Shown here: piece after piece, positions 18,229 to 62,900 of the stretch | Layout: the number at the start of each line of letters is the position of its first letter | Position numbering within the stretch: the first letter of the stretch is position 1 | Source: Phyllobates terribilis | Taxonomy: Eukaryota | Reading direction: 5' to 3' | NCBI RefSeq assembly: GCF_046119375.1 | Contig: NW_027362772.1 | Span: 311,488,001-311,552,000, forward strand | Length of the DNA stretch: 64,000 nt | The notes under the pieces: model-generated | Databases searched by the model: none | What the model was told of the DNA's origin: nothing | What the model saw: the letters and a program-made list of their open reading frames with translations, nothing else | Made by a program: the position numbers and the translations under genes

Positions 18229-21200
18229 TCACTTCTTTTTGAAGAACTCGGCCACAGACGTCGTCCTCTTCACCCCTGCAAGGAAGGATCCATATCACAT
18301 CTACTGCTACCAAACTACAACTCCCAGCGTGTGCGGGGGAATATGGGGGTTGTACTTTGGTAGCAGCTGCCGGCCTCACCTCGGAGATTTCTGCCATCAC
18401 AAGTCACTTCTGTGAATGTAAAGGGGTCTTATACAAATAAAGTGCAACAACTTTCTCCGAGACTGAACCCCCCGCTGCTTGCTGTCAGTGAATGTGCACA
18501 GTGTTACCTTGACTCATGTCCAACCCGTACATGTGCATTAGCGGCGATACACTGTAACAAACCTGCAGATCTAGGGCCGTGCGGTCCTTCATGCTCTGAA
18601 TGTTGCCCTTCACTGACAGCAAGCACAGATATTACAATGGCTAGGAAGCAGAGTCACCGCCACCACTGATGACTTGTAATGTGGAGATGCCCCTTTAAAT
18701 GTACATATGGGCGTTGAACAGAGCTGCAGCTCCGTTTCTGTGTGTCAGTTTCCGGATGATAGAAACCTGTGTGCGCACCGACGCCAGACTGAACTTGTAC
18801 ACAGCAGGCAGTCGAAACAAGCAGAGCTGCAGTGTAAAGCATGAGGGAGTGAGACCCCCCACCAGTCGTGCAGCAGTGCTGGAGTCGCCCATGTTTTCCA
18901 TCTGTCACCCTGACGCTGTTCTCACCCTTGCTGGGGCTTTGTGGCCCGTCCGTCCCGCCGCTCCCCGACCTCCGGGCGTACGCCGCCTTCATGCGCTGGA
19001 TGTTTCGCTTGCTCACGGTCTCGTGCTCCACGATGGGCTTGGGGTAGTCCTGTCCGATGATGCAGCCGGCGCGCTCCTGCACGCTGCGGGGGGATTTCCA
19101 CGGCTCGTATATGTACTCGGGTGGGAACTTCTTTAATATCGGCAAATATTTCCTGCAGGACGGGAGCTGGAAAGTGATCAGCGGCTCCACGAACCCCCCA
19201 CAATGGACCCGGCCCCAGCAGGGGGCGCCCCTCAGTGCCCGCTCGCCCGCCTTACAAATGCTCAGCAGCTGATGGGCAAAGGTGGAGGATTTGCGGTAAA
19301 ACTGCTGGAACAATTCGAGCGTTTTTACTTGTATTTTTTTCCCATTCTGTTGAATCGCATTCACTGATGTTATTGGAAAGTGCAGCGGCTTTTATCATTG
19401 AAAATCATGCAGCGTGTGAACGAGCCCTGAAAGGGACGTTCCAGTTTGATGTGACTATTGAGAGTGCTCTACACTGACAGGCAGCAGAGGTCTTACTGGT
19501 AAGAAGCAGCGGTCCTTCCCAGTGCCGGAGGCGTCTAATCCGATGATTCGGCACTCACTTTATGTAATCTCCGTTTTTGTCGGTTTTCTTCCCAAACGCC
19601 ACCGGGGAGTAAATGCGGAAGAAGCGGTGGAAGAAGGCGCTGGCGGAGAGCCACAGCCAGTTCCCGGCATTCAGCGACCAGTCCGCGTCCAGCAGCAGCT
19701 CCTCAAAAACCTGCGGGTGGAGAACACGGCGTCAGCGGCCCTCCCGCTCCGCCCATCAGATCACCCACACGGCCGCCATCTCTCTGACCTTCTGACCTTC
19801 CTCCCACGATATCCACAGATCTCCACGGGTCAGGAAACAGGCGACGGCGTGCCGAGCAAGATGGTGGATCCAGCCCTCCGTCCTCAGCTGCGTCATGATG
19901 GCGTCTATGAAGGGGAAACCAGTCCTGGCCTGAGGGAGGTCAGACACGGTCATCACCCAGCGGCCTGAACACATGAGCTGACACTCTACAGCACATAGAT
20001 GAACGGACACCGGGGAATTGGTCACCGGGCCGTACTTATGTGTTGGTATCAGCCTGTATTAGGCAATGCTGGGGGTAGTAGTTCTACCACATCTGGAGAC
20101 CACAGGAGGCAGATCAGTGTGACAGCCTGCAATTAGGCATGAACCAGCAGCGCCATCCCCCTCCTCCCCCACATCACTCACTTCGCTCCAGGCTTCCAGA
20201 TATTCCTTGTTCTCATCCCAATCCACCTGCACACACACAGAGTTTCCCACCATCTTGTCAAAGTTGGGTGTCCCTGCCCCCGCTATGTAGTAGAACTCGC
20301 GCCACAGAAGCTGACCGTGGAGTGACACCGGCGGAGACGAGTGCTTCTTCTGCAGAAGGAGAAATGGTTAAGAGGCTGCAGAAAGGAGAGCGCGAGGCGG
20401 CAGAAAGGAGGGAGGGAGCGAGGCGGCAGAAGGGAAAGGGAAGCGAAGGAGGGAGGGAGCGAGGCGGCAGAAGGGAAGGAAGGAGCGAGGCGGCAGAAGG
20501 GAAGAGAAGGAGGGAGCGAGGCGACAGAAGGGAAGGAAGGAGCGAGGCGGCAGAAGGGAAGAGAAGGAGGGAGCGAGGCGGCAGAAGGGAAGGAAGGAGC
20601 GAGGGAGGGAGCGAGGCGGCAGAAGGGAAGCGAGGGAGGGAGAAAGGCGGCAGAAGGGAAGCGAGGGAGGGAGCGAGGCGGCAGAAGGGAAGCGAAGGAG
20701 GGAGCGAAGCGGCAGAAGGGAAGCGAAGGAGGGAGCGAGGAGGCAGAAGGGAAGCGAAGGAGGGAGCGAGGCGGCAGGAGGGAGCGAGGCAGCAGAAGGG
20801 AAGCGAAGGAGGGAGTGAGCGAGGCAGAAGGGAAGCGAAGGAGGGAGCGAGGCGGCAGAAGGGAAGCGAAGGAGGGAGCGAGGCGGCAGAAGGGAAGCGA
20901 AGGAGGGAGCGAGGCGGCAGAAGGGAAGCGAAGGAGGGAGCGAGGCGGCAGAAGGGAAGCGAAGGAGGGAGCGAGGCGGCAGAAGGGAAGCGAAGGAGGG
21001 AGCGAGGCGGCAGAAGGGAAGCGAAGGAGGGAGAGAGCGAGGCGGCAGAAGGGAAGCGAAGGAGGGAGAGAGCGAGGCGGCAGAAGAGAAAGGGAAGCGA
21101 AGGAGGGAGGGAGCGAGGCGGCAGAAGAGAAAGGGAAGCGAAGGAGGGAGGGAGCGAGGCGGCAGAAGGAAAGCGAAGGAGGGAGGGAGAGGCGGCAGAA

Positions 21201-35802: not shown

Positions 35803-37011
35803 GTAACTCAGCAGTTTTCATCTTCAGTTCTGCAGTTACACTGTGTGCTGTAATCTTACTTCTGTTCTGATATTACAGGTAAGTCATGAGTGTAATTATC
35901 CGGCGTCTTCAGGACTTTCCTGTTCTGGCGCAGAGATTAATGTTTCCTGCCTGACATTTATTTTTACCTGCGGATGATTCAGAATCTTCCCTCAGTGATA
36001 ATGTCACGTGTGGATGTAAAGCGTCAGTACAATGGTGAGGAAGAGCAGTGATAGGATAATGGCTGCTGGAAGAGCTACTCACTCCCCTCAGTATTAGAGC
36101 TCGTACTGAACAGAAAGGAAAAACAGCAGGTAGCCGATATGAAAACAGGACCCAAACCTGGGAAACTCAGTCCTAAAGGCTGAACTATACTCCAGAGCAG
36201 CACTCACTATTCTGCTGGTGCAGTCACTGTGTACATACATTACATTACTGATCCTGAGTTACATCCTGTATTATACTCCAGAGCAGCACTCACTATTCTG
36301 CTGGTGCAGTCACTGTGTACATACATTACATTACTGATCCTGAGTTACATCCTGTATTATACCCCAGAGCTGCACTCACTATTCTGCTGGTGCAGTCACT
36401 GTATACATACATTACATTACTGATCGTGAGTTACATCCTGTATTATACCCCAGAGCTGCACTCACTATTCTGCTGGTGCAGTCACTGTATACATACATTA
36501 CATTACTGATCCTGAGTTACATCCTGTATTATACTCCAGAGCTGCACTCACTGTTCTGCTCGTGCAGTCACTGTGTACATACATTACATTACTGATCCTG
36601 AGTTACATCCTGTATTATACCCCAGAGCTGCACTCACTATTCTGCTGGTGCAGTCACTGTATACATACATTACATTACTGATCGTGAGTTACATCCTGTA
36701 TTATACTCCAGAGCTGCACTCACTGTTCTGCTCGTGCAGTCACTGTGTACATACATTACATTACTGATCCTGAGTTACATCCTGTATTATACCCCAGAGC
36801 TGCACTCACTATTCTGCTGGTATAGTCACTGTGTACATACATTACATTACTGATCCTGAGTTACATCCTGTATTATACCCCAGAGCTGCACTCACTATTC
36901 TGCTGGTGCAGTCAGTGTGTACATACATTACATTACTGATCCTGAGTTACATCCTGTATTATACTCCAGAGCTGCACTCGTTATTCTGCTGGTGCAGTCA
37001 GTGTGTACATA

Positions 37012-40000
37012 TGACGCGCCCCCTGGGCCAGTGCTGTTTGGGGGATTACCCGGAGCCGGATCAGATGGGGGTTGTAGTCTCCGAGTGGCGGCGACCCGGT
37101 CCGTGCCCAGGGTGTCAAGCTCAGTGTGTGGCAGTCTTTACAGATGTTATTGGTTGTTCTTAGTGTCGACTACGCCACCCGTTGGTTTGCGGTCAAAAGG
37201 CCGCCGCTCCAGCAGGGTCCGCTGAGGCTGGTGGTATATGTGCAGCTGTGGTGGTATAACCCCCAACGGGAGGGGTATAGCCTCAGGGGGTCAGGTGTAG
37301 AGGATGGTGGTAGTGGTGGTGCAGTGTGGATGTTAAGAAGACTCAGAGTCGGGCTGTGCAGTTCAGGGTTTTTACTTACTGCTGTTCTGTGGGTCACTCT
37401 GGCCTTGAGTGACCGCCCGAGCCGTGCTGCGTCCACCAGGTCCTGGACTCGGCCAACCCCCAAGCAATTCTGGAGCGTGGTCCTGAGCTCCCTTTCTGAC
37501 TGTCCTCTCTACTGGCCGTTCCCACCAGGGGTCCACTTATGTCCGGCTCCCTCGGGTCTCCTGTTGGGTGAACCTTCTTTGGCTTCCCTGACCCTATGCT
37601 CGGTGTGCCTTCTAGTGGACTTGGTGAGGGGCTGCTCCACATGTAATGTCGCAGCCTCCGGTTCTTAGCTGAGGGTAGTTTCTCTCCTCCACTAATTTGG
37701 GATCCGGTTCCCTTGCGTGCCAACCCTTCACCCTTCTGGTTGTATACTGGGTTCTTGGGGTTCCTTCTTCTTCCCCTCTGGGTCCTTCTCTTCTCCTCTC
37801 TCTCTGCAGGCTCTCCTGGACCTCTCTCAGGACCGACTGTCCCTCTACAAAAGACTGACTGACTGACTGACCCTGTCTCTAGATGGTACCCACCTTATAT
37901 ACTCCCTCTATGTGTGAGCTCAGGTGACCAGCACCCAATGAGCTCCTAGCCTTACCCAGACTGCTCCCCCTATCTGCCCCTACACTACTGGGATGTTCCA
38001 CCCCCCTCCCACTCCAGCCAGGGACAGACACTGTCGTACCTGCACATATACTGGTGGGAGTACCGTCGGTCTGTCCCCCGGAAATGGGATGTGTGTAGTG
38101 CATGCAGCCTACTGAGCTCAGTTCCACACTCCATCCTTACCCGGGAGTGGAATATCACACCTCTGGCTTGAGGTGTAATACCCCTGTAGCAGCCGAATCC
38201 TCAGGGTGCTACATTCCCCCCTGGTAAATCACAGCACGTCCTCGGGCTGTAAGAGAACAAAAACATCCAAAAACATACTTTTTTTTTTTTTTTTTCATAA
38301 CAACATAAACATATAAAACATTATATAAATATTATTAGCATAAAAACTTTCTCATAATTAACATTCTTGGAAACTCTCTTGCTCCTCCGGCCACGGTGCA
38401 ACTTGTGACCGGGTAAAGTGCGACAGTCTCTTCTGGAAAGAAAAACACAGCTTTCCTATAAAACCAGTAAGCGGCGCCTTTAAAAAGCGCAACTATATAC
38501 AAGGGGAGGTTTGGCCGCTCTCAGTCCTCGACCAGTGGGAATAGGGACACACGGGTTAAAGTTCAATTTGCTGGTCCCAACGGGGACTATAATGGTAACA
38601 GTTCTGGTACCCTGACGGGTAACTATGTACAGTCTCTTTACCGTACTTTAATGACGGCGTACTCCTGCTCCTTCTTCAGACCCGTCCGGGTCCTCTTGCT
38701 CCTCTTCACACCGTAGCTCCTCCTCCGTCAGCCGGTGTACATGGAGGGCGTAGGGTCCTTTGGCACACTTGTGCCGGGTGAACGTGACCTCGTCCCCTAC
38801 ATATAGGTCACGACCTCTGTGTCCCTCCGGTAGGTGGGACTCAACGTCTCTTCTGGTCACAAAGACGTCGCTGGGGGTGTGATGATCCCTGATGAAACCC
38901 CAACCATGCTGCAGTTGGAATTTAATTACAGTCCCGGTGGCACGGGGACCGTGGGCTGCACGGGGGTTCCTCCTGGTCCTGCTCTTCTGCCCTGCGCTCT
39001 GTTCCTGCAGCCGCTGCTCACGGACCCGCCTCTCTCTCCGTTCTTGCTCGAAGACTGCCAACTGCTGGCGGCAGCACTCCACACGCTCCGCTGCGGCTGC
39101 CCGAGTTTCCTGAGTGAACCCCGTGAGGTCTCCTCCGGTGGGGTCCCACTCGAACTGCGCTTCTTCCAGCGGGAGCGGGGTCCTCTTAACGGGCTTCGGA
39201 GCCGGAATCAGGGGCTCGCACAGGGGCCTTGCTTTTTGGAGTTCCAGTTGGTAGTACTCCGGTGGCCATTTAAAGGGCTGCCCATCCGGGCACGTATGCT
39301 GGGCAAATAGGTCTTCACCCAGGTGTGGCGCTGTGGATGTTGAGGGCGCGGTGGTGGTAGCGGCGCCCGGGTTCGCCAGGCCTTGCGACCAGGCCTGGGG
39401 TACCCTGAACGTAAAGGGCACCGTGAAGACGGCGGCGCCCGGGGTTACTTGGCCCAGCGACCAGGCCGGTGGTGTTTCCTGCTTTGCCGCGCTTAGGGTT
39501 GAGGCGCGTGACGTCACAGGGGTCGCGGCCGCGGCTTCTGCTTGAGGCCTTGTCTGGAGCGGTGACGATGCAGCGACGGGCACGGCAGGGGGAATTTCGG
39601 GCTCTGCGACGGGGAGCTGGGGCAGGCTCACGGTTTCCCGGCTCGGGGTAGTGACGTCCCCTTTACCTGCCTCCATCTGTTCAGCTCCCTCTTCGGCGCC
39701 GTCTCCGGCCTTCACTCCTCCTGCACCATCCTCAGAGGCGGTCTGTCTCCTCGTCTCGGGTGGCGTGCTTTGCTGGCGGGTTCTTGCCTGCAGGGCCATC
39801 TCTCGGCTCCACTCCGTCAGCGTCTCTCGCTGCACCTGGGCCATCCTCCATGCGAGGCGCTCCAGCGCGGTCTGCGCACACTCCCGGTCTCGGGGGAGCT
39901 GTGCCAGAATCTCCACTAAGCCTAGTGGGGTTGTTGCTTGCAGCAGGCTCCTGACCACTGGGTCGGTGCTGCCTGTCTCTCCTTCCATCTCCGGGTGTGC

Positions 40001-41700
40001 TTTCTCCAGACTCCTCCAGGCTGCACCCATCTTCGCTCTTTTCTTCTGTCTCCGCCCACATTGAGGGTGGTCCCGGGGCAACTTTGTGATTGTCAGTTCC
40101 AGGGGCAGTTCTCTCACGCTGATGGACATCTCTAGCATCACAGTCTCTGTTGGTGGGCGCGGTTTCCGCTTTTGGCGCCATTCCTTGACCTGGCCCACGA
40201 TGGGAGGTGACCTCTTGCCACCCTCTGGCACGCCCATAATGGCGTCCGCTCTTCCAAGGCGGGAAATCTTCTGGAAATGGCGGGAATCGTCTCCCAGTGG
40301 CGGGAAACTCCGTGGATGGCGGGAAAAAGCTGCAAATGGCGGGCAACCGGCGGGAGCCGACTTGTGATGGCGTCCGATGGCGGGGACCCTCCGGAACCGG
40401 CGGGAGACTTCTTTTTGAGGTAAATGTGTACTTTTCTTCAGGCACGCAGTACCCGGTGGTTGCGGGCACGAAATCCTGCCGACTACGCCAAAGTTGACGC
40501 GCCCCCTGGGCCAGTGCTGTTTGGGGGATTACCCGGAGCCGGATCAGATGGGGGTTGTAGTCTCCGAGTGGCGGCGACCCGGTCCGTGCCCAGGGTGTCA
40601 AGCTCAGTGTGTGGCAGTCTTTACAGATGTTATTGGTTGTTCTTAGTGTCGACTACGCCACCCGTTGGTTTGCGGTCAAAAGGCCGCCGCTGCAGCAGGG
40701 TCCGCTGAGGCTGGTGGTATATGTGCAGCTGTGGTGGTATAACCCCCAACGGGAGGGGTATAGCCTCAGGGGGTCAGGTGTAGAGGATGGTGGTAGTGGT
40801 GGTGCAGTGTGGATGTTAAGAAGACTCAGAGTCGGGCTGTGCAGTTCAGGGTTTTTACTTACTGCTGTTGTGCTGGTCACTCTGGCCTTGAGTGACCGCC
40901 CGAGCCGTGCTGCGTCCACCAGGTCCTGGACTCGGCCAACCCCCAAGCAATTCTGGAGCGTGGTCCTGAGCTCCCTTTCTGACTGTCCTCTCTACTGGCC
41001 GTTCCCACCAGGGGTCCACTTATGTCCGGCTCCCTCGGGTCTCCTGTTGGGTGAACCTTCTTTGGCTTCCCTGACCCTATGCTCGGTGTGCCTTCTAGTG
41101 GACTTGGTGAGGGGCTGCTCCACATGTAATGTCGCAGCCTCCGGTTCTTAGCTGAGGGTAGTTTCTCTCCTCCACTAATTTGGGATCCGGTTCCCTTGCG
41201 TGCCAACCCTTCACCCTTCTGGTTGTATACTGGGTTCTTGGGGTTCCTTCTTCTTCCCCTCTGGGTCCTTCTCTTCTCCTCTCTCTCTGCAGGCTCTCCT
41301 GGACCTCTCTCAGGACCGACTGTCCCTCTACAAAAGACTGACTGACTGACTGACTGACCCTGTCTCTAGATGGTACCCACCTTATATACTCCCTCTATGT
41401 GTGAGCTCAGGTGACCAGCACCCAATGAGCTCCTAGCCTTACCCAGACTGCTCCCCCTATCTGCCCCTACACTACTGGGATGTTCCACCCCCCTCCCACT
41501 CCGGCCAGGGACAGACACTGTCGTACCTGCACATATACTGGTGGGAGTACCGTCGGTCTGTCCCCCGGAAATGGGATGTGTGTAGTGCATGCAGCCTACT
41601 GAGCTCAGTTCCACACTCCATCCTTACCCGGGAGTGGAATATCACACCTCTGGCTTGAGGTGTAATACCCCTGTAGCAGCCGAATCCTCAGGGTGCTACA
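37012..41700 (-). mobile_element. Non-autonomous LTR retroelement copy 1 (4689 bp) carrying a cold-shock-domain ORF
   Basis: LTRs 41700-40495 (5', 1206 bp) and 38213-37012 (3', 1202 bp), TG..CA ends; TSD CATA; PBS TGGCGTAGTCGGCAGGAT 40490-40473 complementary to the tRNA-Ser 3' end (..ATCCTGCCGACTACGCCA); PPT AGGGGGGAA abutting the 3' LTR; TATATAA at 41388-41382. Confidence 0.95.
38648..40237 (-). CDS. 529-aa element-encoded protein with a C-terminal cold-shock domain (CSD ~38941-38729)
   Basis: TGTVIKFQLQHGWGFIRDHHTPSDVFVTRRDV...LYVGDEVTFTRHKCAKGPYALHV aligns by eye with the YBX/LIN28/CspA CSD (GTVKWFN..GYGFI....DVFVH....L..GE.VEF....G.KG..A.NV). Preceded by a coiled-coil-like E/R/Q segment. 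No RT, IN or CCHC motif. Confidence 0.85.
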   Translation of the reverse strand: MGVPEGGKRSPPIVGQVKEWRQKRKPRPPTETVMLEMSISVRELPLELTITKLPRDHPQCGRRQKKRAKMGAAWRSLEKAHPEMEGETGSTDPVVRSLLQATTPLGLVEILAQLPRDRECAQTALERLAWRMAQVQRETLTEWSREMALQARTRQQSTPPETRRQTASEDGAGGVKAGDGAEEGAEQMEAGKGDVTTPSRETVSLPQLPVAEPEIPPAVPVAASSPLQTRPQAEAAAATPVTSRASTLSAAKQETPPAWSLGQVTPGAAVFTVPFTFRVPQAWSQGLANPGAATTTAPSTSTAPHLGEDLFAQHTCPDGQPFKWPPEYYQLELQKARPLCEPLIPAPKPVKRTPLPLEEAQFEWDPTGGDLTGFTQETRAAAAERVECCRQQLAVFEQERRERRVREQRLQEQSAGQKSRTRRNPRAAHGPRATGTVIKFQLQHGWGFIRDHHTPSDVFVTRRDVESHLPEGHRGRDLYVGDEVTFTRHKCAKGPYALHVHRLTEEELRCEEEQEDPDGSEEGAGVRRH

Positions 41701-42093
41701 CATACATTACTGATCCTGAGTTACATCCTGTATTATACTCCAGAGCTGCACTCACTGTTCTGCTGGTGCAGTCACTGTGTACATACATTACATTACTGAT
41801 CCTGAGTTACATCCTGTATTATACTCCAGAGCTGCACTCACTATTCTGCTGGTGCAGTCACTGTGTACATACATTACATTACTGATCCTGAGTTACATCC
41901 TGTATTATACTCCAGAGCTGCACTCACTATTCTGCTGGTGCAGTCACTGTGTACATACATTACATTACTGATCCTGAGTTACCTCCTGTATTATACTCCA
42001 GAGCTGCACTCACTATTCTGCTGGTGCAGTCACTGTGTACATACATTACATTACTGATCCTGAGTTACATCCTGTATTATACTCCACAGCTGC

Positions 42094-45000
42094 TGACGCG
42101 CCCCCTGGGCCAGTGCTGTTAGGGATACCCGGAGCCGGATCAGATGGGGGTTGTAGTCTCCGAGTGGCTGTGACCCGGTCCGTGCCCAGGGTGTCAAGCT
42201 CAGTGTGTGGCAGTCTTTATGATGTTACTAGATGTTCTTTTGTGTCGACTACGCCACCCGTTGATTTGCGGTCACTACGGCCGCCGCTGCAGCAGGGTCC
42301 GCTGAGGCTGGTGATGTGAGTGCAGCTTAGGTAGTATAACCCCCAACGGGAGGGGTATAGCCTCAGGGGGTCAGCCGTGGAGGATGGTGGTTGTGAAGGT
42401 GCAGCAAGGAGACTCAGAGGCATAAAATGCAGTTCCAGGGTTTTACTTACTGGTGTTGCTCGGGTCACTGTGTACAGCAGTGACCACCCAAGCCGTGCTG
42501 CGTCCACCAGGTCCTGGACTCGGTCGACTCCCAGGCAACTCCGGAGTGTGGTCCTGAGCTCCTTTCTGTCTCTCCCTTCTTCTGGCCGTTCCCACCAGGG
42601 ATCCACCTAAGTCCGGCTCCCTCGGGCCTCTTGTTGGTCAAGCCTCCTCTGGGCTCCCTGACCCTATTCTTGGTCTGCCTTCCGGGTGGATTTGGTGGGT
42701 GATCGTGGCAGATCCTGCCCACGACCTCCGGTTCCTGGCTAAGGTGTGCTGTAGCCTCTGCCAGCTTGGGATCCGGTACCCTGTTGCCGACCCTTCACCC
42801 TATTAGCTCTCTTATGGGCTCTTGGGGTCCCCTCTGCGCCTCTGGGTCTCTCTCTCTTCTCCTCTGCTCTGCTTCTCAGGTTACACTCTGACAGACTGAC
42901 GTCTCACAGACTGACAACTGACTGACCGACTGACCCTGATCTAAGATGGTGCCCACCTTATATACTCCCTCTATGTGTGAGCTCAGGTGACCAGCACCCA
43001 ATGAGCTCCTAGCTTTACCCAGGCTGCTCCCCCTATCTGCCCCTACACTACTGGGATGTTCCACCCCCCTCCCACTCCAGCCAGGAACAGACACTGTCGT
43101 ACCTGCACATTTCTCTAGTGGGAGTACCATCGGTCTGTTCCCCGGAAATGGGATGTGTGTAGTGCATGCAGCCTACTAGCTCAGTTCCACACTCCATCCT
43201 TACCCGGGAGTGGAATATCACACCTCTGGGTTGAGGTGCAATACCCCTGTAGCAGCCGAATCCTCAGGGTGCTACATTCCCCCCTGGTAAATCACAGCAC
43301 GTCCTCGGGCTGTAAAATATAAACATCCAAAACATACAAAATTTTTTTTTTTTCATAAACATATAAAACATATAAAACATCATATACATCATCAGCAGCA
43401 ATAAACTCTTCATATAAAAACTTTTCATAAATAACATTCTTGTTTCTGGTTCCTCCGGTCACGGTGCAACTTGTGACCGGGTAAAGTGCTACAGTCTCTT
43501 GAAGAAAACAGTTTCCTATAAAACCGGTAGGGGGCGCTTTAGGAAGCGCAACTATATACAAGGGAAATATGGCCGCTCTCAGTCCTCGGCCAGGTATTAG
43601 GAACTAGGGACACACGGGCATCAGTTCAATTGGCTGGTCCCAACGGGGACTATATTTTAACTAGAACAGTTCTTATACCCTGACGGGTAACTATGTACAG
43701 TCTCTTTACCGTACTTTAACGACGGCGTCCTCCTGCTCCTTCTTTAGATTCTTCAGACCCGTCCGGGTCCTCTTGCTCCTTCTCACACCGCAGCTCCTCC
43801 TCCGTCAGGCGATGCACATGGAGGGCGTAGGGTCCTTTGGCACACTTGTGCCGGGTGAAGGTGACCTCGTCCCCTACATACAGGTCACGACCTCTGTGTC
43901 CCTCCGGCAGATGGCTTTCTACGTCTCTGCGAGTTACAAAGACGTCGCCGGGGGTCTGATGGTCTCTGTTAAAGCCCCATCCGTGCTGCATGTTGAATTT
44001 TATCACAGTCCCGGTGGAAGGGGGACCATGTGCTGCACGGGGATTCCTCCTGGTCCGGCTCTTCTGCTCCGCGCTCCTTATCTGCGCTTGCTGTTCCCGG
44101 ACCCGCCTCTCTCTCCGCTCCCTCTCGAAGACCTCGAGCTGCTGCCGGCAGCACTCTGCACGCTCTGCTGCGGCCGCCCGAGTCTCCTGAGTGAACCCCA
44201 TGAGGTCTTCTCCGGTGGGGTCCCACTCGAACTGTGCCTCCTCCAGCGGGGGCGAGGTCCTCTTTACGGGCTTCGGAGCCGGAATCAGGGGCTCGCACAT
44301 GGGCCTTGCTCTCTGGAGTTCCAGCTGAATGTACTCCTGGGGCCATATGAAGGGCTGCCCATCCGGGCACGTATGCTGGGCAAATAGATTTTCACCCAGG
44401 TGCGGCACTCTAGATGTTGAGGGCGCGTTGATGGTAGTGGCGCCCGGGTCGACCAGGCCTTGCGACCAGGCTTGGGGCACCCTAAAGGCAAAGGGCACCG
44501 TAAGAACGGCGGCGCCCGTGGTTACTCGGCCCTGCGACCAGGCCGGTGGCTCCGCGGAGGTAGGGGGCGCTGTTGGAATTGCGGCGCCCGGGTGTACTAG
44601 GCCTTGCGACCAGGCCGGTGGTATTTCCTGCTTGGCCACGCTCGAAGTCGAGGCGTGTGACGTCACAGGGGTCGCGGCCGCGGTTTCCGGTTGAGGCCTA
44701 GTCGGCGGCGGTGACGATGCAGCGACGGGCACGGCAGGGGGAACTTCGGGCTCTGCGACGGGGAGCTGGGGCAGGCACGCGGTTTCCCGGCTCGGGGTAG
44801 AGACGTCCCCTTTACCTGCCCCCATTCGTTCAGCTCCCTTCTCGGCGCCGTCTCCGGCCTTGAGTCCTCCTGCACCATCCTCAGAGGCGGTCTGTCTCCT
44901 CGTCTCGGGTGGCGTGCTCCGCTGACGGGTTCCGGTCTGCTGGGCCATCTCTCGGCTCCACTCCGCCAACGTCTCTCGCTGCACCCGGGCCATCCTCCGT

Positions 45001-46867
45001 GCGAGGCCCTCCAGCGCGGTCTGTGCACACTCCCGGTCTCGGGGGAGCTGTGCTAGGATCTCCAGCAGGCCTTCTGGAGTGGCGACCTGCAACAGGCTCC
45101 TGACCACTGGGTCGGTGCTGCCTGACTCTCCCTCCATCTCCGGGTAGGCTCTCTCTGGACTCTCTTCCAGACGTCTTGTCTCCGGGTGCGCTCTCTCCAG
45201 ACTGCTCCAGGCGACACCCATCTTTGTTCTCTTCTTCTGTCTCCGCCCACATTTAGGGTGGTCCCGGGGCAACTTTGTGATTGTCAGTTCCAGGGGCAGT
45301 TCTCTTACGCTGATGGACACTTCCAGCATCACAGTCTCTGTTGGTGGGTGCGGTTTCCGCTTTTGGCGCCATTCTTCGACCTGGCCCACGATGGGAGGTG
45401 GCCTTTTGCCACCCTCTGGCACGCCCATAATGGCGTCCGCTCTTCCAAGGCGGGAAATCTTTGGAAATGGCGGGAATCGTCTCCCAGTGGCGGGAAACTC
45501 CATGGATGGCGGGAAAAAGCTGCAAATGGCGGACAACTGGCGGGAAACGACCTGTGATGGGGTCCGTTGGCGGGGACCCTCCGGAACCGGCGGGAGACTT
45601 CTTTTTAAGGTAACGGTGTACTTTTCTTCAGGCACGCAGTACCCGGTTGTTGCGGGCACGTGATCCTGCCGACTACGCCAAAGTTGACGCGCCCCCTGGG
45701 CCAGTGCTGTTAGGGATACCCGGAGCCGGATCAGATGGGGGTTGTAGTCTCCGAGTGGCTGTGACCCGGTCCGTGCCCAGGGTGTCAAACTCAGTGTGTG
45801 GCAGTCTTTATGATGTTACTAGATGTTCTTTTGTGTCGACTACGCCACCCGTTGATTTGCGGTCACTACGGCCGCCGCTGCAGCAGGGTCCGCTGAGGCT
45901 GGTGATGTGAGTGCAGCTTAGGTAGTATAACCCCCAACGGGAGGGGTATAGCCTCAGGGGGTCAGCCGTGGAGGATGGTGGTTGTGAAGGTGCAGCAAGG
46001 AGACTCAGAGGCATAAAATGCAGTTCCAGGGTTTTACTTACTGGTGTTGCTCGGGTCACTGTGTACAGCAGTGACCACCCAAGCCGTGCTGCGTCCACCA
46101 GGTCCTGGACTCGGTCAACTCCCAGGCAACTCCGGAGTGTGGTCCTGAGCTCCTTTCTGTTTCTCCCTTCTTCTGGCCGTTCCCACCAGGGATCCACCTA
46201 AGTCCGGCTCCCTCGGGCCTCTTGTTGGTCAAGCCTCCTCTGGGCTCCCTGACCCTATTCTTGGTCTGCCTTCCGGGTGGATTTAGTGGGTGATCGTGGC
46301 AGATCCTGCCCACGACCTCCGGTTCCTGGCTAAGGTGTGCTGTAGCCTCTGCCAGCTTGGGATCCGGTACCCTGTTGCCGACCCTTCACCCTATTAGCTC
46401 TCTTATGGGCTCTTGGGGTCCCCTCTGCGCCTCTGGGTCTCTCTCTCTTCTCCTCTGCTCTGCTTCTCAGGTTACACTCTGACAGACTGACGTCTCACAG
46501 ACTGACAACTGACTGACTGACTGACCCTGATCTAAGATGGTGCCCACCTTATATACTCCCTCTATGTGTGAGCTCAGGTGACCAGCACCCAATGAGCTCC
46601 TAGCTTTACCCAGGCTGCTCCCCCTATCTGCCCCTACACTACTGGGATGTTCCACCCCCCTCCCACTCCAGCCAAGAACAGACACTGTCGTACCTGCACA
46701 TTTCTCTAGTGGGAGTACCATCGGTCTGTTCCTCGGAAATGGGATGTGTGTAGTGCATGCAGCCTACTAGCTCAGTTCCACACTCCATCCTTACCCGGGA
46801 GTGGAATATCACACCTCTGGGTTGAGGTGCAATACCCCTGTAGCAGCCGAATCCTCAGGGTGCTACA
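42094..46867 (-). mobile_element. Non-autonomous LTR retroelement copy 2 (4774 bp), a diverged subfamily of copy 1
   Basis: LTRs 46867-45685 and 43276-42094 (both 1183 bp); TSD CTGC; same tRNA-Ser PBS at 45680-45663 and same PPT. Confidence 0.95.
43716..45428 (-). CDS. 570-aa element-encoded cold-shock-domain protein (CSD ~44020-43806)
   Basis: Homologous to the copy 1 ORF from the shared MGVPEGG start. The 690-aa track ORF extends upstream, but that part is frameshifted in copy 1. Confidence 0.85.
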   Translation of the reverse strand: MGVPEGGKRPPPIVGQVEEWRQKRKPHPPTETVMLEVSISVRELPLELTITKLPRDHPKCGRRQKKRTKMGVAWSSLERAHPETRRLEESPERAYPEMEGESGSTDPVVRSLLQVATPEGLLEILAQLPRDRECAQTALEGLARRMARVQRETLAEWSREMAQQTGTRQRSTPPETRRQTASEDGAGGLKAGDGAEKGAERMGAGKGDVSTPSRETACLPQLPVAEPEVPPAVPVAASSPPPTRPQPETAAATPVTSHASTSSVAKQEIPPAWSQGLVHPGAAIPTAPPTSAEPPAWSQGRVTTGAAVLTVPFAFRVPQAWSQGLVDPGATTINAPSTSRVPHLGENLFAQHTCPDGQPFIWPQEYIQLELQRARPMCEPLIPAPKPVKRTSPPLEEAQFEWDPTGEDLMGFTQETRAAAAERAECCRQQLEVFERERRERRVREQQAQIRSAEQKSRTRRNPRAAHGPPSTGTVIKFNMQHGWGFNRDHQTPGDVFVTRRDVESHLPEGHRGRDLYVGDEVTFTRHKCAKGPYALHVHRLTEEELRCEKEQEDPDGSEESKEGAGGRRR

Positions 46868-48478
46868 CTGCACTCACTATTCTGCTGGTGCAGTCACTGT
46901 GTACATACATTACATTACTGATCCTGAGTTACATCCTGTATTATACTCCAGAGCTGCACTCACTATTCTGCTGGTGCAGTCACTGTGTACATACATTACA
47001 TTACTGATCCTGAGTTATATCCTGTATTATACTCCAGAGCTGCGCTCACTATTCTGCTGGTGCAGTCACTGTGTACATACATTACATTACTCATCCTGAG
47101 TTACATCTTGTATTATACTTCAGAGCTGCACTCACTATTCTGCTGGTGCAGTCACCGTGTACATACATTACATTACTGATCCTGAGTTACATCCTGTATT
47201 ATACTCCAGAGCTGCACTCACTATTCTGCTGGTGCAGTCACTGTGTACATACATTACATTACTGACCCTGAGTTACCTCCTGTATTATACTCCAGAGCTG
47301 CACTCACTATTCTGCTGGTGCAGTCACTGTGTACATACTGTACATTACATTACTGATCCTGAGTTACATCCTGTATTATACTCCAGAGCTGCACTCACTA
47401 TTCTGCTGGTGCAGTCACTGTGTACATACATTACATTACTGATCCTGAGTTATATCCTGTATTATACTCCAGAGCTGCGCTCACTATTCTGCTGGTGCAG
47501 TCACTGTGTACATACATTACATTACTCATCCTGAGTTACATCTTGTATTATACTCCAGAGCTGCACTCACTATTCTGCTGGTGCAGTCACCGTGTACATA
47601 CATTACATTACTGATCCTGAGTTACATCCTGTATTATACTCCAGAGCTGCACTCACTATTCTGCTGGTGCAGTCACTGTATACATACATTACATTACTGA
47701 TCCTGAGTTACATCCTGTATTATACGCCAGAGCTGCACTCGTTATTCTGCTGGTGCAGTCACTGTGTACATACATTACATTACTGATCCTGAGTTACATC
47801 CTGTATTATACTCCAGAGCTGCACTCACTATTCTGCTGGTGTAGTCACTGTGTACATACATTACTGATCCTGAGTTACATCCTGTATTATACTCCAGAGC
47901 TGCACTCACTATTCTGCTGGTACAGTCACTGTGTACATACATTACATTACTGATCCTGAGTTATATATCCTGTATTATCCTCCAGAGCTGCACTCAGTAT
48001 TCTGCTGGTGCAGTCACTGTGTACATACATTACATTACTGATCCTGAGTTACATCCTGTATTATCCTCCAGAGCTGCACTCACTATTCTGCTGGTGTAGT
48101 CACTGTGCACATACATTACATTACTGATCCTGAGTTACCTCCTGTATTATACCCCAGAGCTGCACTCACTATTCTGCTGGTGCAGTCACTGTGCACATAC
48201 ATTACATTACTGATCCTGAGTTACCTCCTGTATTATACTCCAGAGCTGCACTCACTATTCTGCTGGTGCAGTCACTGTGTACATACATTACAACTACCAC
48301 AATGCAGCACCAGTCAGTGTGTACAGACACTGAACAAGTAACTATCAGCCAGGATATCTGATGTCTGCAGCTGCACTATGAATGCAGCTCTGGCTGTGAC
48401 TGACACATGTGAAGCTTCTGCTTTATTCATTTCCTTTGAAACAAATCTTCATTATTATTTTTTTTTAGGCTTTTGGAA

Positions 48479-49049
48479 ATGGGTTCAAGGGAGAGTAAAT
48501 CCAAGTCGCCCCCCAGGATTCTTGCGAGTCTGGACCATGGGAGCAGAATCAGAGCCGTGACCAGCGGCCGCAGTATGCCAATGCAGCCAGTGCAGTCCAC
48601 TAGTCGTGCGCCCGTCCCTGTGTGGCCGGACAGCAGCGTGCGCTGGCAGAGTCAGTACGATGTCTACATCTGCCACAGCGAGGCCGACGGCTCTTATGCC
48701 ATGGAGATGCTGTCATACCTGGAGCAGCAGCCAGAGAAGCTGCGCTGCTTCCTACCCATGAGGGACATGCAGGCGGGGGGTCCGATACCCTCGGAGATGT
48801 GCAGCGGCTTAGAAAGCAGCCACTGCTGGGTGATGCTGCTGACCCCACAGTTCCTCTCTGATAGCTGGTGTAAATACCAGATGCACCAGTTCCTGGCACA
48901 AGCGCCATGCTCCAATGGGCGATTAATCCCGGTTATCATTGGACTGTCATTTGCGCAGTACCCATCAGTAGTGAAGCATATGTATGCCATCAAGGGCGCG
49001 CTCAGTGACCCCAGTGTGTTCTCAAAAGTCAAAGAAGCCATAGTAACAT
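48479..49049 (+). CDS. TIRAP: TIR domain-containing adaptor protein (Mal), main coding exon; terminal exon not identified
   Basis: RWQSQYDVYICHSEAD..LRCFLPMRDMQAGGPIPSEMCSGLESSHCWVMLLTPQFLSDSWCKYQM..KVKEAIVT matches the TIRAP TIR domain. Acceptor at 48468, donor T|GTAAGT at 49049/49050; syntenic with SRPRA and FOXRED1. Confidence 0.92.
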
Positions 49050-49072
49050 GTAAGTACAATTCTCCAAATCCC

Positions 49073-56833: not shown

Positions 56834-59800
56834 TAGTGATGAGCTCGCAGACAATTTCCGGGTTGCTCGGTGGAAGCTCGGGTCCCCTCCTTGCATGTTT
56901 GGCGCTCTTTACAGAGCCAATGAACTTGCAGGGATTGCCTGCCATGCACTGTAATGCCGTAGCCATGTTGGTTGTGGGCATTACAGTGATTGGCTGGCCG
57001 CACAGCGTCATCAGGTCTATATAAGACCTGGCACCGCCATGCTCGTCACAGTCACTCCGGATCAGACAGTGTAGGGAGAGCTGCTGCTGTGTCAGGGAGA
57101 GATTTGCTTGTGTATTAGGTGGTGTAGGGAGAAAAACCGTACATTACACATATCCATCTTAACAAACAGTCCTTCTGAGGACTAATCCATCTGCAGAGAT
57201 ATCAGGCAGGCAGTGTATATAGGCAGGCAGGCAGGGTATATAGCAGACTGCAGTGCATATAGCACAAGAGGCTCCATTCCAGTTCTGCCTTCTGCTGCTG
57301 TTAGATATTTCTAGACATAACCCCAGGTCTCAGGGGCCAGGAATAATTTTTTTTTGTATCTTAATCCTCATTATTTGTTTAAAAAGCAATCCAGAGAACA
57401 CCGTTTTTCTGTGTCATTTGCCAGGTCCTTTCCATATTACAGAGCTAAAAATCCAGCTATTTAAAACTGTGGTTTGTCCGTCACATGGATCACATATAAT
57501 TGCGCTGAAAATACTGCCATTTCTGGCCTCCATTAAAAATTTGTTTCAGTGTGTCAGTGAAGCTATTGACACCAGTTTGCTGTTCAAAATAGTTACCTAC
57601 AGGCCAGGTATTTAAAACTGTGGTTTGTCTGTCACACAGATCACATATAAATTCGCTCCAAATTCAGACATTTGTAGTGAGCGTGGAAGATATTATCCTC
57701 CATTTAAAATGGTGCATGCAGAGGCCGAGGCCGTGGGCAAGCTGAAATTGTGCCACAACAAACACCCACATCTTCTCGCTCAACCTTCCTGTCCCAATTA
57801 ATAGGGGACCGCAGCACACCACTATTGAACCCAGAGCAGTGTGAAAAGGTTATTAGTTGGATAGCAGATAATGCTTCCAGTCACTTAGCCACCACCACCC
57901 TGTCTTCCACACGGTCAAGTCTCAGTAGCCGTGAGTCTGGACCGCATATTCCTCACCCTGATCCTCCATCCTCCCACCATGCCGAGTGCCCAGAGACAAC
58001 TGATCCCACACTTGGACACTCTGAAGAGCTGTTCACTTTTCCATTTATAGATTCGGGCCTCTCGCCCGGTCCACTTGAAGTGGGGCATGAGGAGATGGCA
58101 TGTAGCGATGCCCAAATATTTGAGCAGTCACGGTCACACGAAAGCGACGGTGGGAAAGTGACACAAGAGGTGGATGATGATGAGACACAATTGCCAGAAA
58201 GTCAGGAGGAGGACCAGGGTGCGGAAGTGGAAGACGAGGTGGTGGATGATATAGTAACTGACCCAACCTGGCAGGAGGACATGCAGAGCGGGGCCAGCAG
58301 CACACAGGGGGAGGTAGGCAGAGCACCCCAACAGGCAGGAAGAAGCAGTGTGGTGGCCGCAGAGAGAAGGTGGGCAACCGCTCCCTGTAACACCAACACG
58401 AAGGAAGTTGCCAATACAACTGTTAGGTCTTCCCGAGTCTTGGTGTTTCTTAAAGACTCTGCCAATAACCCCAAAAAAGGCCATTTGCACCACCTGCCAG
58501 GCCAGTATCAGCAGGGGTGGCAAAACGACCAGCCTGACCACCACCAGCATGATCAGGCACATGGCAGCAAAGCACCCGACTAAGTGGGCCGAGCCCCAGG
58601 GTCCAGGAACAGTGTCTGCAGGTGGCACCATTGTTTCTTCCGCTGTTGTGCGTGCAAGCCAATCCCCTGTCCATGTGAAGACTCCTCCTGCCCTGCACCT
58701 GTCGTTGCGCACTCTCAAGAAGCAGCATCAGGAAGCACGTCCACATCCTTGTCCCAGCGCAGCGTTCAGTTGTCCATACCCCAGTCCTTGGAACGCAAGC
58801 GCAAATATGCAGCCAACGCCCCACAGGCCACACTACTAAATTCTCACATTTCGCGACTGCTTGCACTCGAAATGTTGCCTTTTAGGCTCATGGAGATGGA
58901 AGCATTCCGCAACCTGATGGCGGTGGCTGTCCCTCAGTACTCTGTCCCCAGCCTCCACTATTTCTCCCGGTGTGTCGTCCCCGCATTACACAAGCACGTG
59001 TCCCAAAACATTAGCCGTGCCCTCAACAACGCAGTTACCGGGAAAGTCCACCTAACCACGGACACGTGGACAAGTGGTTGTGGACAGGGATGGTACATCT
59101 TGCTGACGGCACACTGGGTTAACATAGTGGAAGCCGGGACCCAGTTGGACCTTGTGACGGAACACGTCCTCCCGACGCCAAGGATTGCAGGCCCTAGGTC
59201 AATCAGGGTTTCCACCACAGTCTACAGCTCCTGCACCTCAGCCTCCTCCTCCTCTTCAGCCTCCATCTCCGAAATGACCACATCAGTCACAAGCTGGAAG
59301 CACTGCAGCCCTGCCTCGACCAAGCGGCAACAGGCTGTGCTGAAGCTAATATGCTTAGATGACAAACCACACAATGCTGTGGCTCACACCGCTGAACCTA
59401 CAGTCTACACACATAAGACCTCAGGAGTGGACATGGATGTCAGACATATGTACCATCCTCCAAAACTTTGAGGACTCCACCAAGATGGTGAGCGGCGATG
59501 ACGCCATAATTAGAGTCACCATCCCTCTTCTCTGTCTTCTGAAATGCTCACTGCTCACAATCAAAGAGGATGCATTGCAGGCAGAGCACGATGAGATGGA
59601 GCAAGGAACCATACAGAATGATTACACACAGCCAAGCCTCATCTCTTCCCAACGTGGATTGGGTGATAATGAGGAAGAGGAGGAGGAAGAACAGGAGCTA
59701 GTTTCATGCGCTATAGACTGTACTACCTGCACAACTGTCATACCGTCTGTTCAGCGTGGATGGCCAGAGGACAGAGAGGAGGAGGAGGAGGAGAGCATGG

Positions 59801-59923
59801 TCACTCGTCCTCTTGGTGAGGACACGGAAGTCTTGCCTGTTAGTAGTCTGGCACGCATGGCTGAGTTTATGTTACGCTGCCTTTCCCATGACCCTCGCGT
59901 TCTCAAAATTTTGGCTGACAGTC
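56834..59923 (+). mobile_element. Defective hAT DNA transposon (zf-BED transposase pseudogene ~57700-59920), interrupted by Gypsy
   Basis: TAGTGATGAGC terminus; BED finger (KAICTTCQ..SMIRHMAAKH); KVHLTTDTWTS..LTAHWV catalytic motif; multiple frameshifts and an internal deletion removing the CxxH and WNST regions. Confidence 0.85.
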
Positions 59924-62900
59924 TGTTACGGGTCCGGGTGGTGGAACCTCTGTGCCGAGGTGCAAGGAGGGACCCAGAGGGGCGTGACTAAGTATCCACC
60001 CGAACCGACCCTGGTCGTACGCCAGCAAACGACACCGTGACCAGGGAGGATCCGGGCTGAGGGACCAGGTGCTACTCTGGGGACGACCTTGTAAGAGAGC
60101 AGGTGGCTCCCACAGGTCAGATGGCAGGGACTGACCAGTATGGCGGATGGACACGGCAAGCAGGCGGAAGTCTCTGGTAGCAGACAGGTGGTCACAGTTC
60201 GAGAAAGCAGGGCAAGTAGCAGTCTTTAGGTTTACCAGGAAGGTGGTCACAGCAAGTGACGGCAGGGTCTCCAGGCAAGGCTGGCAGGAAACAGGCAGGT
60301 GCTCCCAGGTGAGCAGGCAGACAGATGAGGCAGGTAACTGGCAGGTAACTGGTGGGTGCTCCCAGGTGAGCCGGCAGACAGACGAGGCAGGTAACAGGTG
60401 GGCGCTCCCAGGTGAGCGGTCTGACAGACAAGGCAGCCGGATGCTCCCAGGTGAGCGGACAGATAGCCAAGGCAGGTAACCGACAGGTAACAGGTGAGCG
60501 CTCCAGGTGAGCAGGCTGGCAGGTAACGGGCAGGCAGGACGAGAAGTCAGGCTAGCAGCGGGACCTGAGGGCTGAAGCACAGATCAGACACAGTGCAAAC
60601 AACTTTGCTCGGGCACCTCCATTTTGGAGGAGGTGCCTTATATATGGGAGGTCCTCCGGCAATTGGCCGGGGACTCCTTAGGACGGCGCGCGGTCCCTTT
60701 AAGAGAGGGGGAGCGCGCGCGCGCCCTAAGCACACAGCCGGGGAAGGAGCGCGTGCCGGAAGCAGCGGGGACAGAAGCGCTAGAGGACGCCGCGCCAGGA
60801 GCGGGAAGGTTAGAGGGACGGCGTCTCTGCCTAGCAAGGGGCAGAGACGCCGATGCTACAGTACCCCCCCCCCCCTTTAGGCCCCCTCTTTTTTAGGCCA
60901 GAAAGAAATTTTTCAAGGAGAAGCGGGGCGTTGATGTTCTCCCTGGGTTCCCAAGTTCTCTCCTCGGGACCAAATCCCTTCCAATCTACCAGAAAAAAGG
61001 TCTTTCCTCTTACCCTCTTGGTGGCCAGAATACTGTCTACCTCAAAGACGTCTTCAGCGGAAACCGGAGCAGGGGGAGCACCTGGATTGTTGGAAAAAGA
61101 GTTAAAGACAACGGGTTTGAGGAGAGATACGTGGAAGGAGTTGGGAATCCGTAAGGTGGCCGGGAGTTTTAATTTGTAGGCCACTGGATTAATTTGCCTG
61201 AGGATTTCGAAAGGGCTGATGAAGCGAGGACCTAACTTGTAGGAGGGTATCTTGAGCCGTACATGTTTGGAGGAGAGCCAAACCTTGTCCCCCGGACGGA
61301 ATTGAGGCGGATCCAGACGTCTCTTATCAGCATATTTCTTCATCCGCTCGGAGGACAGAAGAAGTGCGGACCTAGTGCTCTCCCAAATAGTAGAAAACTC
61401 GCTGACAAGAGACTGCGCGGCAGGGTTGTCCACAGAGGCGGAGACGGGAAACGGAATCCGGAGGTGCTGGCCATAGACAATAAAGAACGGGGACTTGGAA
61501 GAGGATTCACTCTCGTGGTTATTATAAGAGAACTCGGCCCAAGGAAGGAGGTCCACCCAATCAGAATGGTGGGCATTAACAAAGTGCCGGAGATAGCTGG
61601 TAAGGATCTGATTGATCCGCTCCACTTGACCATTGAACTGAGGGTGGTAAGCGGAGGAGAAATCCAGGGTGACGTCTAGCAGTTTACATGTGGCTCTCCA
61701 GAAGCGTGAGGTGAACTGAACCCCTCGATCCGACACGATGTGGAGGGGTAGGCCATGGAGACGGAAGATATGACAAAGAAATCCTTGGCCAGCTCAGGTG
61801 CAGACGGGAGACCAGGCAGGGGAATGAAGTGGGCCATTTTAGAAAAGCGGTCCGCGACTACCCAAATGACAGTACACCCGGCAGAAACAGGGAGATCGGT
61901 AATGAAGTCCATAGCGATGTGTTGCCACGGGGCAACAGGTATGGGAAGCGGCAGGAGATGACCAGCTGGTAAGTGTCTGGGAACTTTGTTGCGACCACAA
62001 GATGAACAGGCAGAGACGAAGTCTACCACATCCTTACGCAGGGTAGACCACCAGTAATGCCGGGAAATGAGTAGGAAGGTCTTCTTTTGGCCGGCATGGC
62101 CAGCTAGTTTAGAAGAATGACCCAGAACCTTCTCACGGTCAGGAGCCGCCACGAATGTCTTGCCGGGTGGTAGACGAGTCAAATCCAAGGGGGCCACATT
62201 CATCACCTTGGAGGGGTCGATAATGTGCATAGGCTCCTCCTCTTGGTCGGAGGACAGGAAGGATCGAGACAAGGCATCAGCTTTGACATTTTTGTCCGCC
62301 GGGCGGAAATGAAGGATGAAATCGAAGCGGGCAAAATACAAAGACCACCGGGCCTGACGTGGATTAAGTCTCTGGGCATTTTGGAGATATGCCAGGTTTT
62401 TGTGATCCGTGTAGATGATCACCGGGTATAGAGCCCCTTCAAGCAGATAGCACCACTCTTCAAGCGCCAATTTGACGGCCAGCAGTTCTCGGTCTCCTAT
62501 GGAGTAATTGTGCTCAGAGGAGGAGAAGATTTTGGAGAAAAAGCCGCAGGTTACCATTCTCCCAGATGAAGACTTTTGGGTGAGCACCGCTCCGGCTCCA
62601 GAAGAGGAAGCATCAACCTCCAGGTAGAACTGTTTGTTGCAGTCCGGACGGTGCCGCACAGGGGCAGAGGAGAAGGCTTGCTTCAGGGAAAGGAAGGCCT
62701 CCTCAGCTTCGGATGACCATACCTTGGGATTTGCTCCCTTACGGGTGAGCGCAGATATGGGCGCAGTCCGTGACGAGAAGTGAGGAATGAAGAGACGATA
62801 GTAATTAGCGAAGCCCAGGAATCGCTGTATCGCCTTCAAGCCCTCCGGACGGGGCCACTTTAGGACAGCAGAGAGCTTCTCGGGATCCATTCGCAAGCCT

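Follow-up and report, generated by a model that had tools for sequence, protein, structure and literature searches.

Why would a long terminal repeat (LTR) retrotransposon that encodes none of the enzymes for its own transposition hold on to a single gene, and what might that gene do for it? The question is raised by a 64,000-nucleotide (nt) stretch of the Phyllobates terribilis genome (assembly GCF_046119375.1, contig NW_027362772.1, positions 311,488,001 to 311,552,000, forward strand; hereafter, the window). On its minus strand lie two neighboring LTR elements, element 1 at 37012-41700 and element 2 at 42094-46867, each with one open reading frame (ORF) that carries a cold-shock domain (CSD) near its C terminus. 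We find that they belong to a family of non-autonomous Ty3/Gypsy elements, here called family A, whose sole gene encodes this CSD protein. The family is real and its gene is under selection. The explanation that we favor, and to which we give about an even chance, is that family A is a satellite Ty3/Gypsy element with a captured, probably Y-box-derived protein that favors its own RNA.

Both elements are complete. In element 1, the 5' LTR (40495..41700; 1206 nt) contains a TATA-like box at 41382-41388 and an AGTAAA near 40859, and its putative U5 spans 40495..40859. The primer binding site (PBS; 40472..40490), which begins 4 nt past the 5' LTR, is complementary to the 3' end of tRNA-Ser, and the polypurine tract (PPT; 38214..38222) is a purine run directly before the 3' LTR (37012..38213; 1202 nt). 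Element 2 has the same plan, with a 5' LTR at 45685..46867 (1183 nt; TATA-like box at 46549-46555), a tRNA-Ser PBS at 45662..45680, again 4 nt past the LTR, a purine run at 43277..43285, and a 3' LTR at 42094..43276 (1183 nt). Both pairs of LTRs have TG..CA ends; the two copies are 99.6% identical in element 1 (5 mismatches and 4 gap positions) and 99.4% identical in element 2 (7 mismatches), and both elements are young. Each is flanked by a 4-bp target site duplication (TSD), CATA for element 1 (37008-37011 and 41701-41704) and CTGC for element 2 (42090-42093 and 46868-46871). Their interiors measure 2281 and 2408 nt and are 90% identical to each other, and their LTRs are 88-89% identical. 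An 86-bp satellite DNA lies between the insertions (41701..42093) and around them (36186-37011 and from 46868). When the PBS complement was used as a search pattern, six of the seven loci found were tRNA-Ser(AGA/TGA) genes ended by that complement. Automatic scoring of 32 further loci found 4-bp TSDs at 22, and several of the misses were nested or tandem copies. An earlier note on this DNA, made from its letters, had described two complete elements with these LTR ends, TSDs, PBS, and PPT, and every one of these signals was found at both elements.

The ORF of element 1 (P0001; 38648..40237) encodes 529 amino acids (aa) and starts 257 nt past the 5' LTR, at an ATG with a good Kozak-like context. 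That of element 2 (P0002; 43716..45428) encodes 570 aa, or 595 aa if an in-frame ATG at 45503 is used. In a Pfam scan of both ORFs, the CSD model PF00313 was the sole match at E<=1, with 33.6 bits in P0001 (residues 434-501; 38735..38938) and 28.8 bits in P0002 (43812-44015), both above the cut-off of 27. The models for protease, reverse transcriptase (RT), RNase H, integrase, and zf-CCHC matched neither ORF, as the earlier note had read the 2.3-2.4-kb interior. An AlphaFold2 model of P0001, built on a 21-row alignment, contains a five-strand barrel at residues 432-502 with a predicted local distance difference test (pLDDT) score of about 90. Immediately before the CSD is a long charged helix (residues 379-423; 38969..39103), and further upstream is a block of two short helices and one long helix (residues 93-156; 39770..39961). 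About 220 low-confidence residues follow this helical block, and 318 of the 529 residues of the protein have a pLDDT of <50. The OB fold expected for such a domain was borne out by Foldseek, which matched the barrel to CspA and YBX CSD structures (template modeling score to CspA of 0.88-0.89 by target length); the PDB rows among the matches listed were exclusively cold-shock/OB folds. The N terminus is basic (19 K/R in 80 residues of P0001), and the CSD of P0001 is followed by a 26-residue acidic tail. ESM Atlas gave no usable match to the whole protein and weak matches, under 0.9, to residues 360-515, while Rfam gave a single, chance-level match.

Purifying selection acts on this ORF. We calculated the ratio of nonsynonymous to synonymous divergence (dN/dS) by the Nei-Gojobori method with our own script, between real, uninterrupted copies and without a consensus; the pairs are not independent of each other. 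For the whole ORF, dN/dS was 0.16-0.42 in 21 pairs. The CSD gave 0.06-0.15 in six family A pairs (dS 0.51-1.36; Fisher p<=5e-7), a seventh pair being saturated. Over seven pairs, the values were 0.08-0.36 for the long helix, 0.18-0.38 for the helical block (one pair saturated), 0.31-0.48 for the linker, and 0.28-0.81 for the N-terminal 88 residues, the least constrained part. A captured accessory gene had been one of two options offered in the earlier note, and a gene kept by selection agrees with it. In some subfamilies a longer frame opens at an ATG inside U5, but the extension has a dN/dS of about 1 or no synonymous changes (six pairs); because it shows no coding constraint, we place the start at the ATG that follows the leader. 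If transcription starts 30 nt past the TATA box, as we assumed, the leaders of the two elements contain 1 and 2 ATGs, compared with 7.7 and 8.6 in dinucleotide shuffles, and only 0 and 2 of 500 shuffles were equally low. Since the leader is depleted of ATGs, the ORF is probably translated from the full-length RNA by scanning to its ATG, a conclusion that we hold with moderate confidence.

Family A is abundant. Its 16-nt LTR end occurs 106,652 times in the 10.57-Gb assembly, a count that includes the candidate helper described below, whereas the reversed control occurs 0 times; thus, the family is not a chance resemblance. The PPT/LTR junction of family A has 28,703 matches at <=2 mismatches, and for a 28-mer from within the CSD there are 11,366 at <=1 mismatch, each with a control of 0. 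By arithmetic from the junction count, family A makes up about 100-135 Mb, or 1.0-1.3% of the assembly. LTR sequence flanked the ORF on both sides in 30 of 30 of the best protein matches fetched, which were selected by score. To these we add a sample of 20 LTR-end pairs, drawn from the initial 6 Mb of contig C1 in order of position, which comprised 15 with homology to the ORF, 3 with Gag-Pol, and 2 with neither. Among the 15 family A copies, 7 were uninterrupted, 2 had a single stop, 3 were frameshifted, and 3 had lost most or all of the CSD. The possibility that most copies lack an intact ORF is therefore nearly evenly answered, with 7 uninterrupted and 8 broken; dN/dS is stronger evidence than the fraction of intact copies. 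Family A subfamilies diverge down to about 33% identity. Head-to-tail arrays with a spacing of 3.1-3.7 kb occur on contigs C254, C468, C675, C5, C7, and C1, as expected for copies that share LTRs.

The three Gag-Pol pairs of the sample (L037, L049, and L050) are Ty3/Gypsy elements and candidate helpers. Domains were scanned on L049, which has a PNMA-type Gag (23.3 bits; cut-off 25), zf-CCHC, a weak protease, RT, RNase H, and integrase; the gag-pol border shows a frame change in two of the three copies. Helper and family A have in common the LTR end, the 4-nt spacer, the PBS, and the 4-bp TSD, and their PPTs and LTR starts are similar. The first 61 nt are 95-98% identical in two of the three helper copies. 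U5 is also common to both (74% over 385 nt by blastn for that of element 1), and over the final 330 nt of the LTR the identity is 77-81% (79% for element 1), compared with 56-57% for an unrelated LTR; the middle of the LTR is at background level (55-58%). The autonomous partner that the earlier note had postulated for mobilization in trans thus has a candidate in this PNMA-Gag Gypsy. A recombinant subfamily (L043 and L111-L124) joins the helper's U5, leader, and first 13 gag codons to the family A gene. It is 85-89% identical to the helper over about 790 nt, as was true of all 14 sister copies of L043 that were fetched; its copies have interiors that are about 98.6% identical, and its junction has 285 genome matches. 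These recombinants fit co-packaging of helper and family A RNAs and their reverse transcription in one particle. From the shared signals, we strongly infer that family A depends on a PNMA-Gag Gypsy helper for mobilization. The helper junction has 33,240 matches (one mismatch; three loci checked), a number that disagrees with the 15:3 ratio of the sample and is not usable as a copy number.

Where might the CSD have come from? A profile of 16 element CSD regions scored 48-49 bits against YBX1/2, <=39 against bacterial Csp, <=21 against LIN28, and 16 against CSDE1 and CARHSP1, which makes a Y-box origin likely, though well short of certain. The label "LIN28-like" given previously does not hold, at 21 bits versus 49 for Y-box and with no knuckle. 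A CSD tree of 24 rows without YBX grouped 20 element-type rows at 88/86, below the starred level, and was not used to judge origin. Like YBX1/YBX2 (FRGY2), its best profile match, the element CSD has a long beta3-beta4 loop; unlike theirs, it is C-terminal and stands behind a long helix. In the genome we also found intronless CSDE1-like stretches interrupted by other repeats (L125-L130 and L155-L157; C1:734.43-734.45 Mb), as well as what we take to be CSDE1-like exons on C2 (L131-L132) and a decayed Y-box-like CSD (L145). The residues of YB-1 that contact nucleic acid are W65, F74, F85, H87, and K118, four of which, including W65 and H87, are stacking residues (PMC7498358). By alignment, the element CSD keeps the equivalents of F74, F85, and K118 and has Trp in place of Y72. 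The RNP motifs previously pointed out survive in part: the VFV of RNP2 is present, but RNP2 reads VFVT and lacks the usual His of VFVH, and the W65 equivalent is Lys. A neighboring Arg and a last-strand Tyr are near-invariant across the element family; homologue P0044 keeps the Trp, and genomic locus L135 keeps the RNP2 His.

Family A is not alone in this genome. Family B (L075 and L081-L110; e.g., C1009:295500-305000) is a second LTR family that lacks pol. Its LTRs, about 1020 nt long, are unrelated to those of family A, and it has the same tRNA-Ser PBS, 4-bp TSDs, and a 2.6-kb interior. Its ORF of 574-588 aa combines an Arg-rich N terminus (49 K/R in 150 residues) with a CSD, which in L082 scores 21 bits, below the PF00313 cut-off of 27. 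All 20 fetched copies had the ORF, and none of the 20 had pol between the LTRs; whole-ORF dN/dS was 0.26-0.44 (five pairs). The family B junction has 471 genome matches, versus 2,435 sites with its last five LTR bases plus PBS. Two family B copies, L092 and L093, lie 143 kb from each other, and both interrupt another PNMA-type Gypsy, whose pol is 69% identical to that of the helper, at the same position in pol; a local duplication is the probable cause. Three further CSD ORF types (L051/L077, L053/L076, and L135) are divergent. No LTR pair was detectable around L051, L053, or L135 (a single locus each), and we do not claim them as LTR elements; the L051 CSD is 81% identical to one from Ranitomeya imitator. 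Named homologues come from dendrobatoid frogs and Bufo (P. terribilis, Ranitomeya variabilis, R. imitator, Anomaloglossus baeobatrachus, and Bufo bufo), and those outside P. terribilis would be LTR associated by inference. The remaining homologues among the matches listed, from searches limited to 8000 candidates, are multi-CSD proteins of protists, a rotifer, and others, so that absence from other vertebrates, among these matches, is weakly indicated. Several frog gene models have an element-type CSD (P0039, P0046, P0047, P0068, and P0071). One is named Y-box-binding protein 2-A-like, and others are fused to R3H, astacin/CUB, DDE_Tnp_4, or MIF4G domains. They are probably annotated transposon ORFs, joined by the gene predictor to unrelated genes, which suggests that some frog "Y-box-like" or "CSD-containing" models are of this nature.

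In the explanation that we favor, family A RNA would carry the cis signals of its helper (U5, LTR ends, tRNA-Ser PBS, and PPT), and the co-resident PNMA-Gag Gypsy family would package, reverse-transcribe, and integrate it. A single captured gene, probably from a Y-box CSD, would have replaced gag-pol and would be translated from the full-length RNA into a protein composed of a basic N terminus, a short helical block, a disordered linker, a long helix, and the CSD. This protein would bind element RNA, most likely with a preference for the RNA that encodes it, and by coating or chaperoning that RNA would allow it to survive in the germ line and to compete better for helper particles. The benefit would be quantitative, such that protein-less copies could be mobilized in bursts while long-lived lineages would keep the protein. 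We favor coating or chaperoning of its own RNA because lasting selection in a selfish lineage needs a benefit biased in favor of that lineage and because host YB-1 reportedly increases both the amount of retroviral RNA and the output of particles (PMC6040738). For RNA binding and a cis-biased benefit, our confidence is moderate to weak. In the ova of a related frog, Gypsy RNA levels are reportedly high (PMC6278860), which is context and not evidence for family A. A broader version, which we place somewhat short of even, would have an old class of hyloid-frog satellites use a captured Y-box domain as a private RNA coat that outcompetes the helper or escapes oocyte mRNA masking. This class would comprise several LTR families, occupy about 1% of the genome, and have CSD-less cheaters of its own, making up a three-level parasite system.

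Several observations weigh against this explanation. The sharing of U5 could reflect common descent or recombination and not present dependence. dS is uneven along the ORF, which suggests mosaic subfamilies or recombination between subfamilies, and the dN/dS values that support selection are not independent; in family B, moreover, CSD dN/dS ranges from 0.08 to 0.65 and is nonsignificant in two of five pairs. As to origin, single-sequence phmmer and Foldseek place bacterial Csp first, and a CSDE1 copy outscores the decayed Y-box-like genomic copy (20.4 versus 15.4 bits). Two of the four YB-1 stacking residues are swapped in the element CSD (W65 to Lys and H87 to Thr), with the result that it may bind RNA weakly or in an altered way. 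Finally, the gene is broken in all 15 recombinant copies examined, a break that was inherited, since 11 of the 15 are split at an identical site, and the junction left by loss of the long helix and CSD is matched 152 times, at sites scattered across many contigs. These lineages are small beside the 28,703 junction matches of family A. Because they still spread, the CSD protein would help but be dispensable in cis; this weighs against an obligatory cis role, and supply in trans is possible.

The spread of CSD-less lineages is also what speaks for the main rival, in which family A is the same satellite but its protein is a diffusible regulator acting on the whole family, and perhaps on the helper, with CSD-less copies as cheaters that use it in trans. 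It could be an export factor like Rev or CERV, an LTR activator, or a decoy against host Y-box masking or small-RNA silencing. The basic N termini of P0001 and family B and the altered binding face of the CSD would suit such a role, and there is a precedent in the CERV accessory protein, which is reported to be needed for genomic RNA export (PMC10309623). A wholly shared good should erode under cheaters, yet dN/dS is 0.06-0.07 at dS 0.87-1.36, and the basic N terminus is the least constrained part of the protein. We consider this family-wide regulator or decoy unlikely on balance.

Less probable still is a role inside the helper particle, where the protein would be an extra nucleocapsid-like chaperone for satellite RNA in tRNA-Ser annealing and strand transfer. 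CSDs melt nucleic acid structure, which would suit this role. A second 11-nt tRNA-Ser-complementary motif within U5 (40650-40660, about 165 nt before the LTR end), which could be a second primer contact, is conserved in family A and in the helper (L049) and lacking in family B. The helper Gag already has zf-CCHC, however, and CSD-less copies finish reverse transcription and integration, so we regard this role as improbable. The other option of the earlier note, a highly diverged Gag with a CSD in place of the knuckle, similar to TR-GAG or Quinta, has been largely refuted. The ORF does stand in the gag position, straight after the PBS leader, and a basic N terminus, helical block, and C-terminal nucleic acid-binding domain recall a Gag. 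But the block has only about 64 residues in three helices and is not a capsid fold; no capsid structure is among the Foldseek PDB and BFVD matches listed. The block (nine members) had no Pfam match below E 0.04 and a probability of 0.4% by hhalign against a helper-type Gag profile, and tblastn of P0001 against two helper copies found nothing at E<=1. In 14 of 15 recombinant copies, the helical block is read in a different frame from the gag start. A complex prediction for helper Gag and the block, run without alignments, scored 0.01 and speaks neither for nor against. With neither capsid fold nor homology to Gag, we reject this candidate as very improbable. Least credible is host-level selection (domestication) with the element as a mere carrier, since the frog gene models that include an element-type CSD look like predictor fusions, 8 of the 15 sampled copies are broken, and the selection is observed among dispersed element subfamilies with near-identical LTRs on either side.

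How does family A, taken as a helper-dependent satellite, compare with known systems? LINE-1 ORF1p joins a helical oligomerization region to an RNA-binding domain and has cis preference, in an autonomous non-LTR element; this is an analogy, and we claim no homology. Plant TR-GAG elements are defined as non-autonomous and gag-only. Along with these, RLG_Quinta of einkorn wheat, which is paired with RLG_Cereba through shared LTR, PBS, and PPT motifs (PMC11302176), resembles family A in being non-autonomous yet coding and in having an autonomous Gypsy partner. The Quinta Gag, however, derives from its partner, whereas the family A gene has no detectable homology to Gag and a host-type CSD. The helper, with its PNMA-type capsid, zf-CCHC, and protease-RT-RNase H-integrase order, resembles PNMA-Gag Ty3/Gypsy elements (Metaviridae) of frogs (PMC4131045 and PMC11011659). 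Its domain order excludes the Gmr1 arrangement (PMC4131045), and cis signals are all that it shares with family A. Rotifer ORF3s (PMC5408684) and CERV of Cer1 (PMC10309623) are likewise captured non-gag/pol genes that serve element RNA or spread, but they stand beside gag-pol in autonomous elements, whereas the helper-dependent family A has no gene other than the accessory one. The C-terminal domain of YB-1 alternates between basic and acidic (PMC6040738), whereas the element protein has only its acidic tail; LIN28 pairs its CSD with two CCHC knuckles, and the element protein has none. Among the papers listed by full-text searches, we found no description of a retrotransposon carrying a cold-shock or Y-box gene, a scope outside which Repbase/Dfam and most subscription journals lie. 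The main texts of PMC6278860, PMC4131045, PMC12822217, and PMC6338049 do not mention cold shock, and that of 10.1101/2023.11.06.565769 does so in a reference only. A repeat library may already hold family A, perhaps as an "unknown" LTR.

Non-autonomous LTR elements are usually noncoding or Gag-only, whereas family A keeps a non-Gag, host-type nucleic acid-binding gene under strong selection. This implies that at some step of the cycle, be it RNA survival, export, or entry into particles, a hitchhiker would gain from a protein of its own. Family A is a real contributor to the size of a poison-frog genome that homology-based annotation would miss because it has no pol. The coexistence of lineages with an intact gene, a deletion, or a recombinant structure means that sequence data alone suffice to test for cis preference and cheating.

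The rest of the window contains other features. Exons on the plus strand at 13293-14800 and on the minus strand at 18657-20058 resemble what we take to be an FAD-dependent oxidoreductase (FOXRED1-like) and a cryptochrome/photolyase, and at 57700-60000 on the plus strand is what is presumably a decayed hAT-like transposase; pieces of these stretches scanned against Pfam gave no significant match. At 48479-49060 on the plus strand, 1.6 kb beyond element 2, is an exon with a TIR_2 domain (61.8 bits). A different Gypsy, of the chromovirus type and unrelated to family A, occupies 60834-64000 on the minus strand; it is frameshifted and contains RT, RNase H, an integrase zinc finger, SH3, and a chromodomain.

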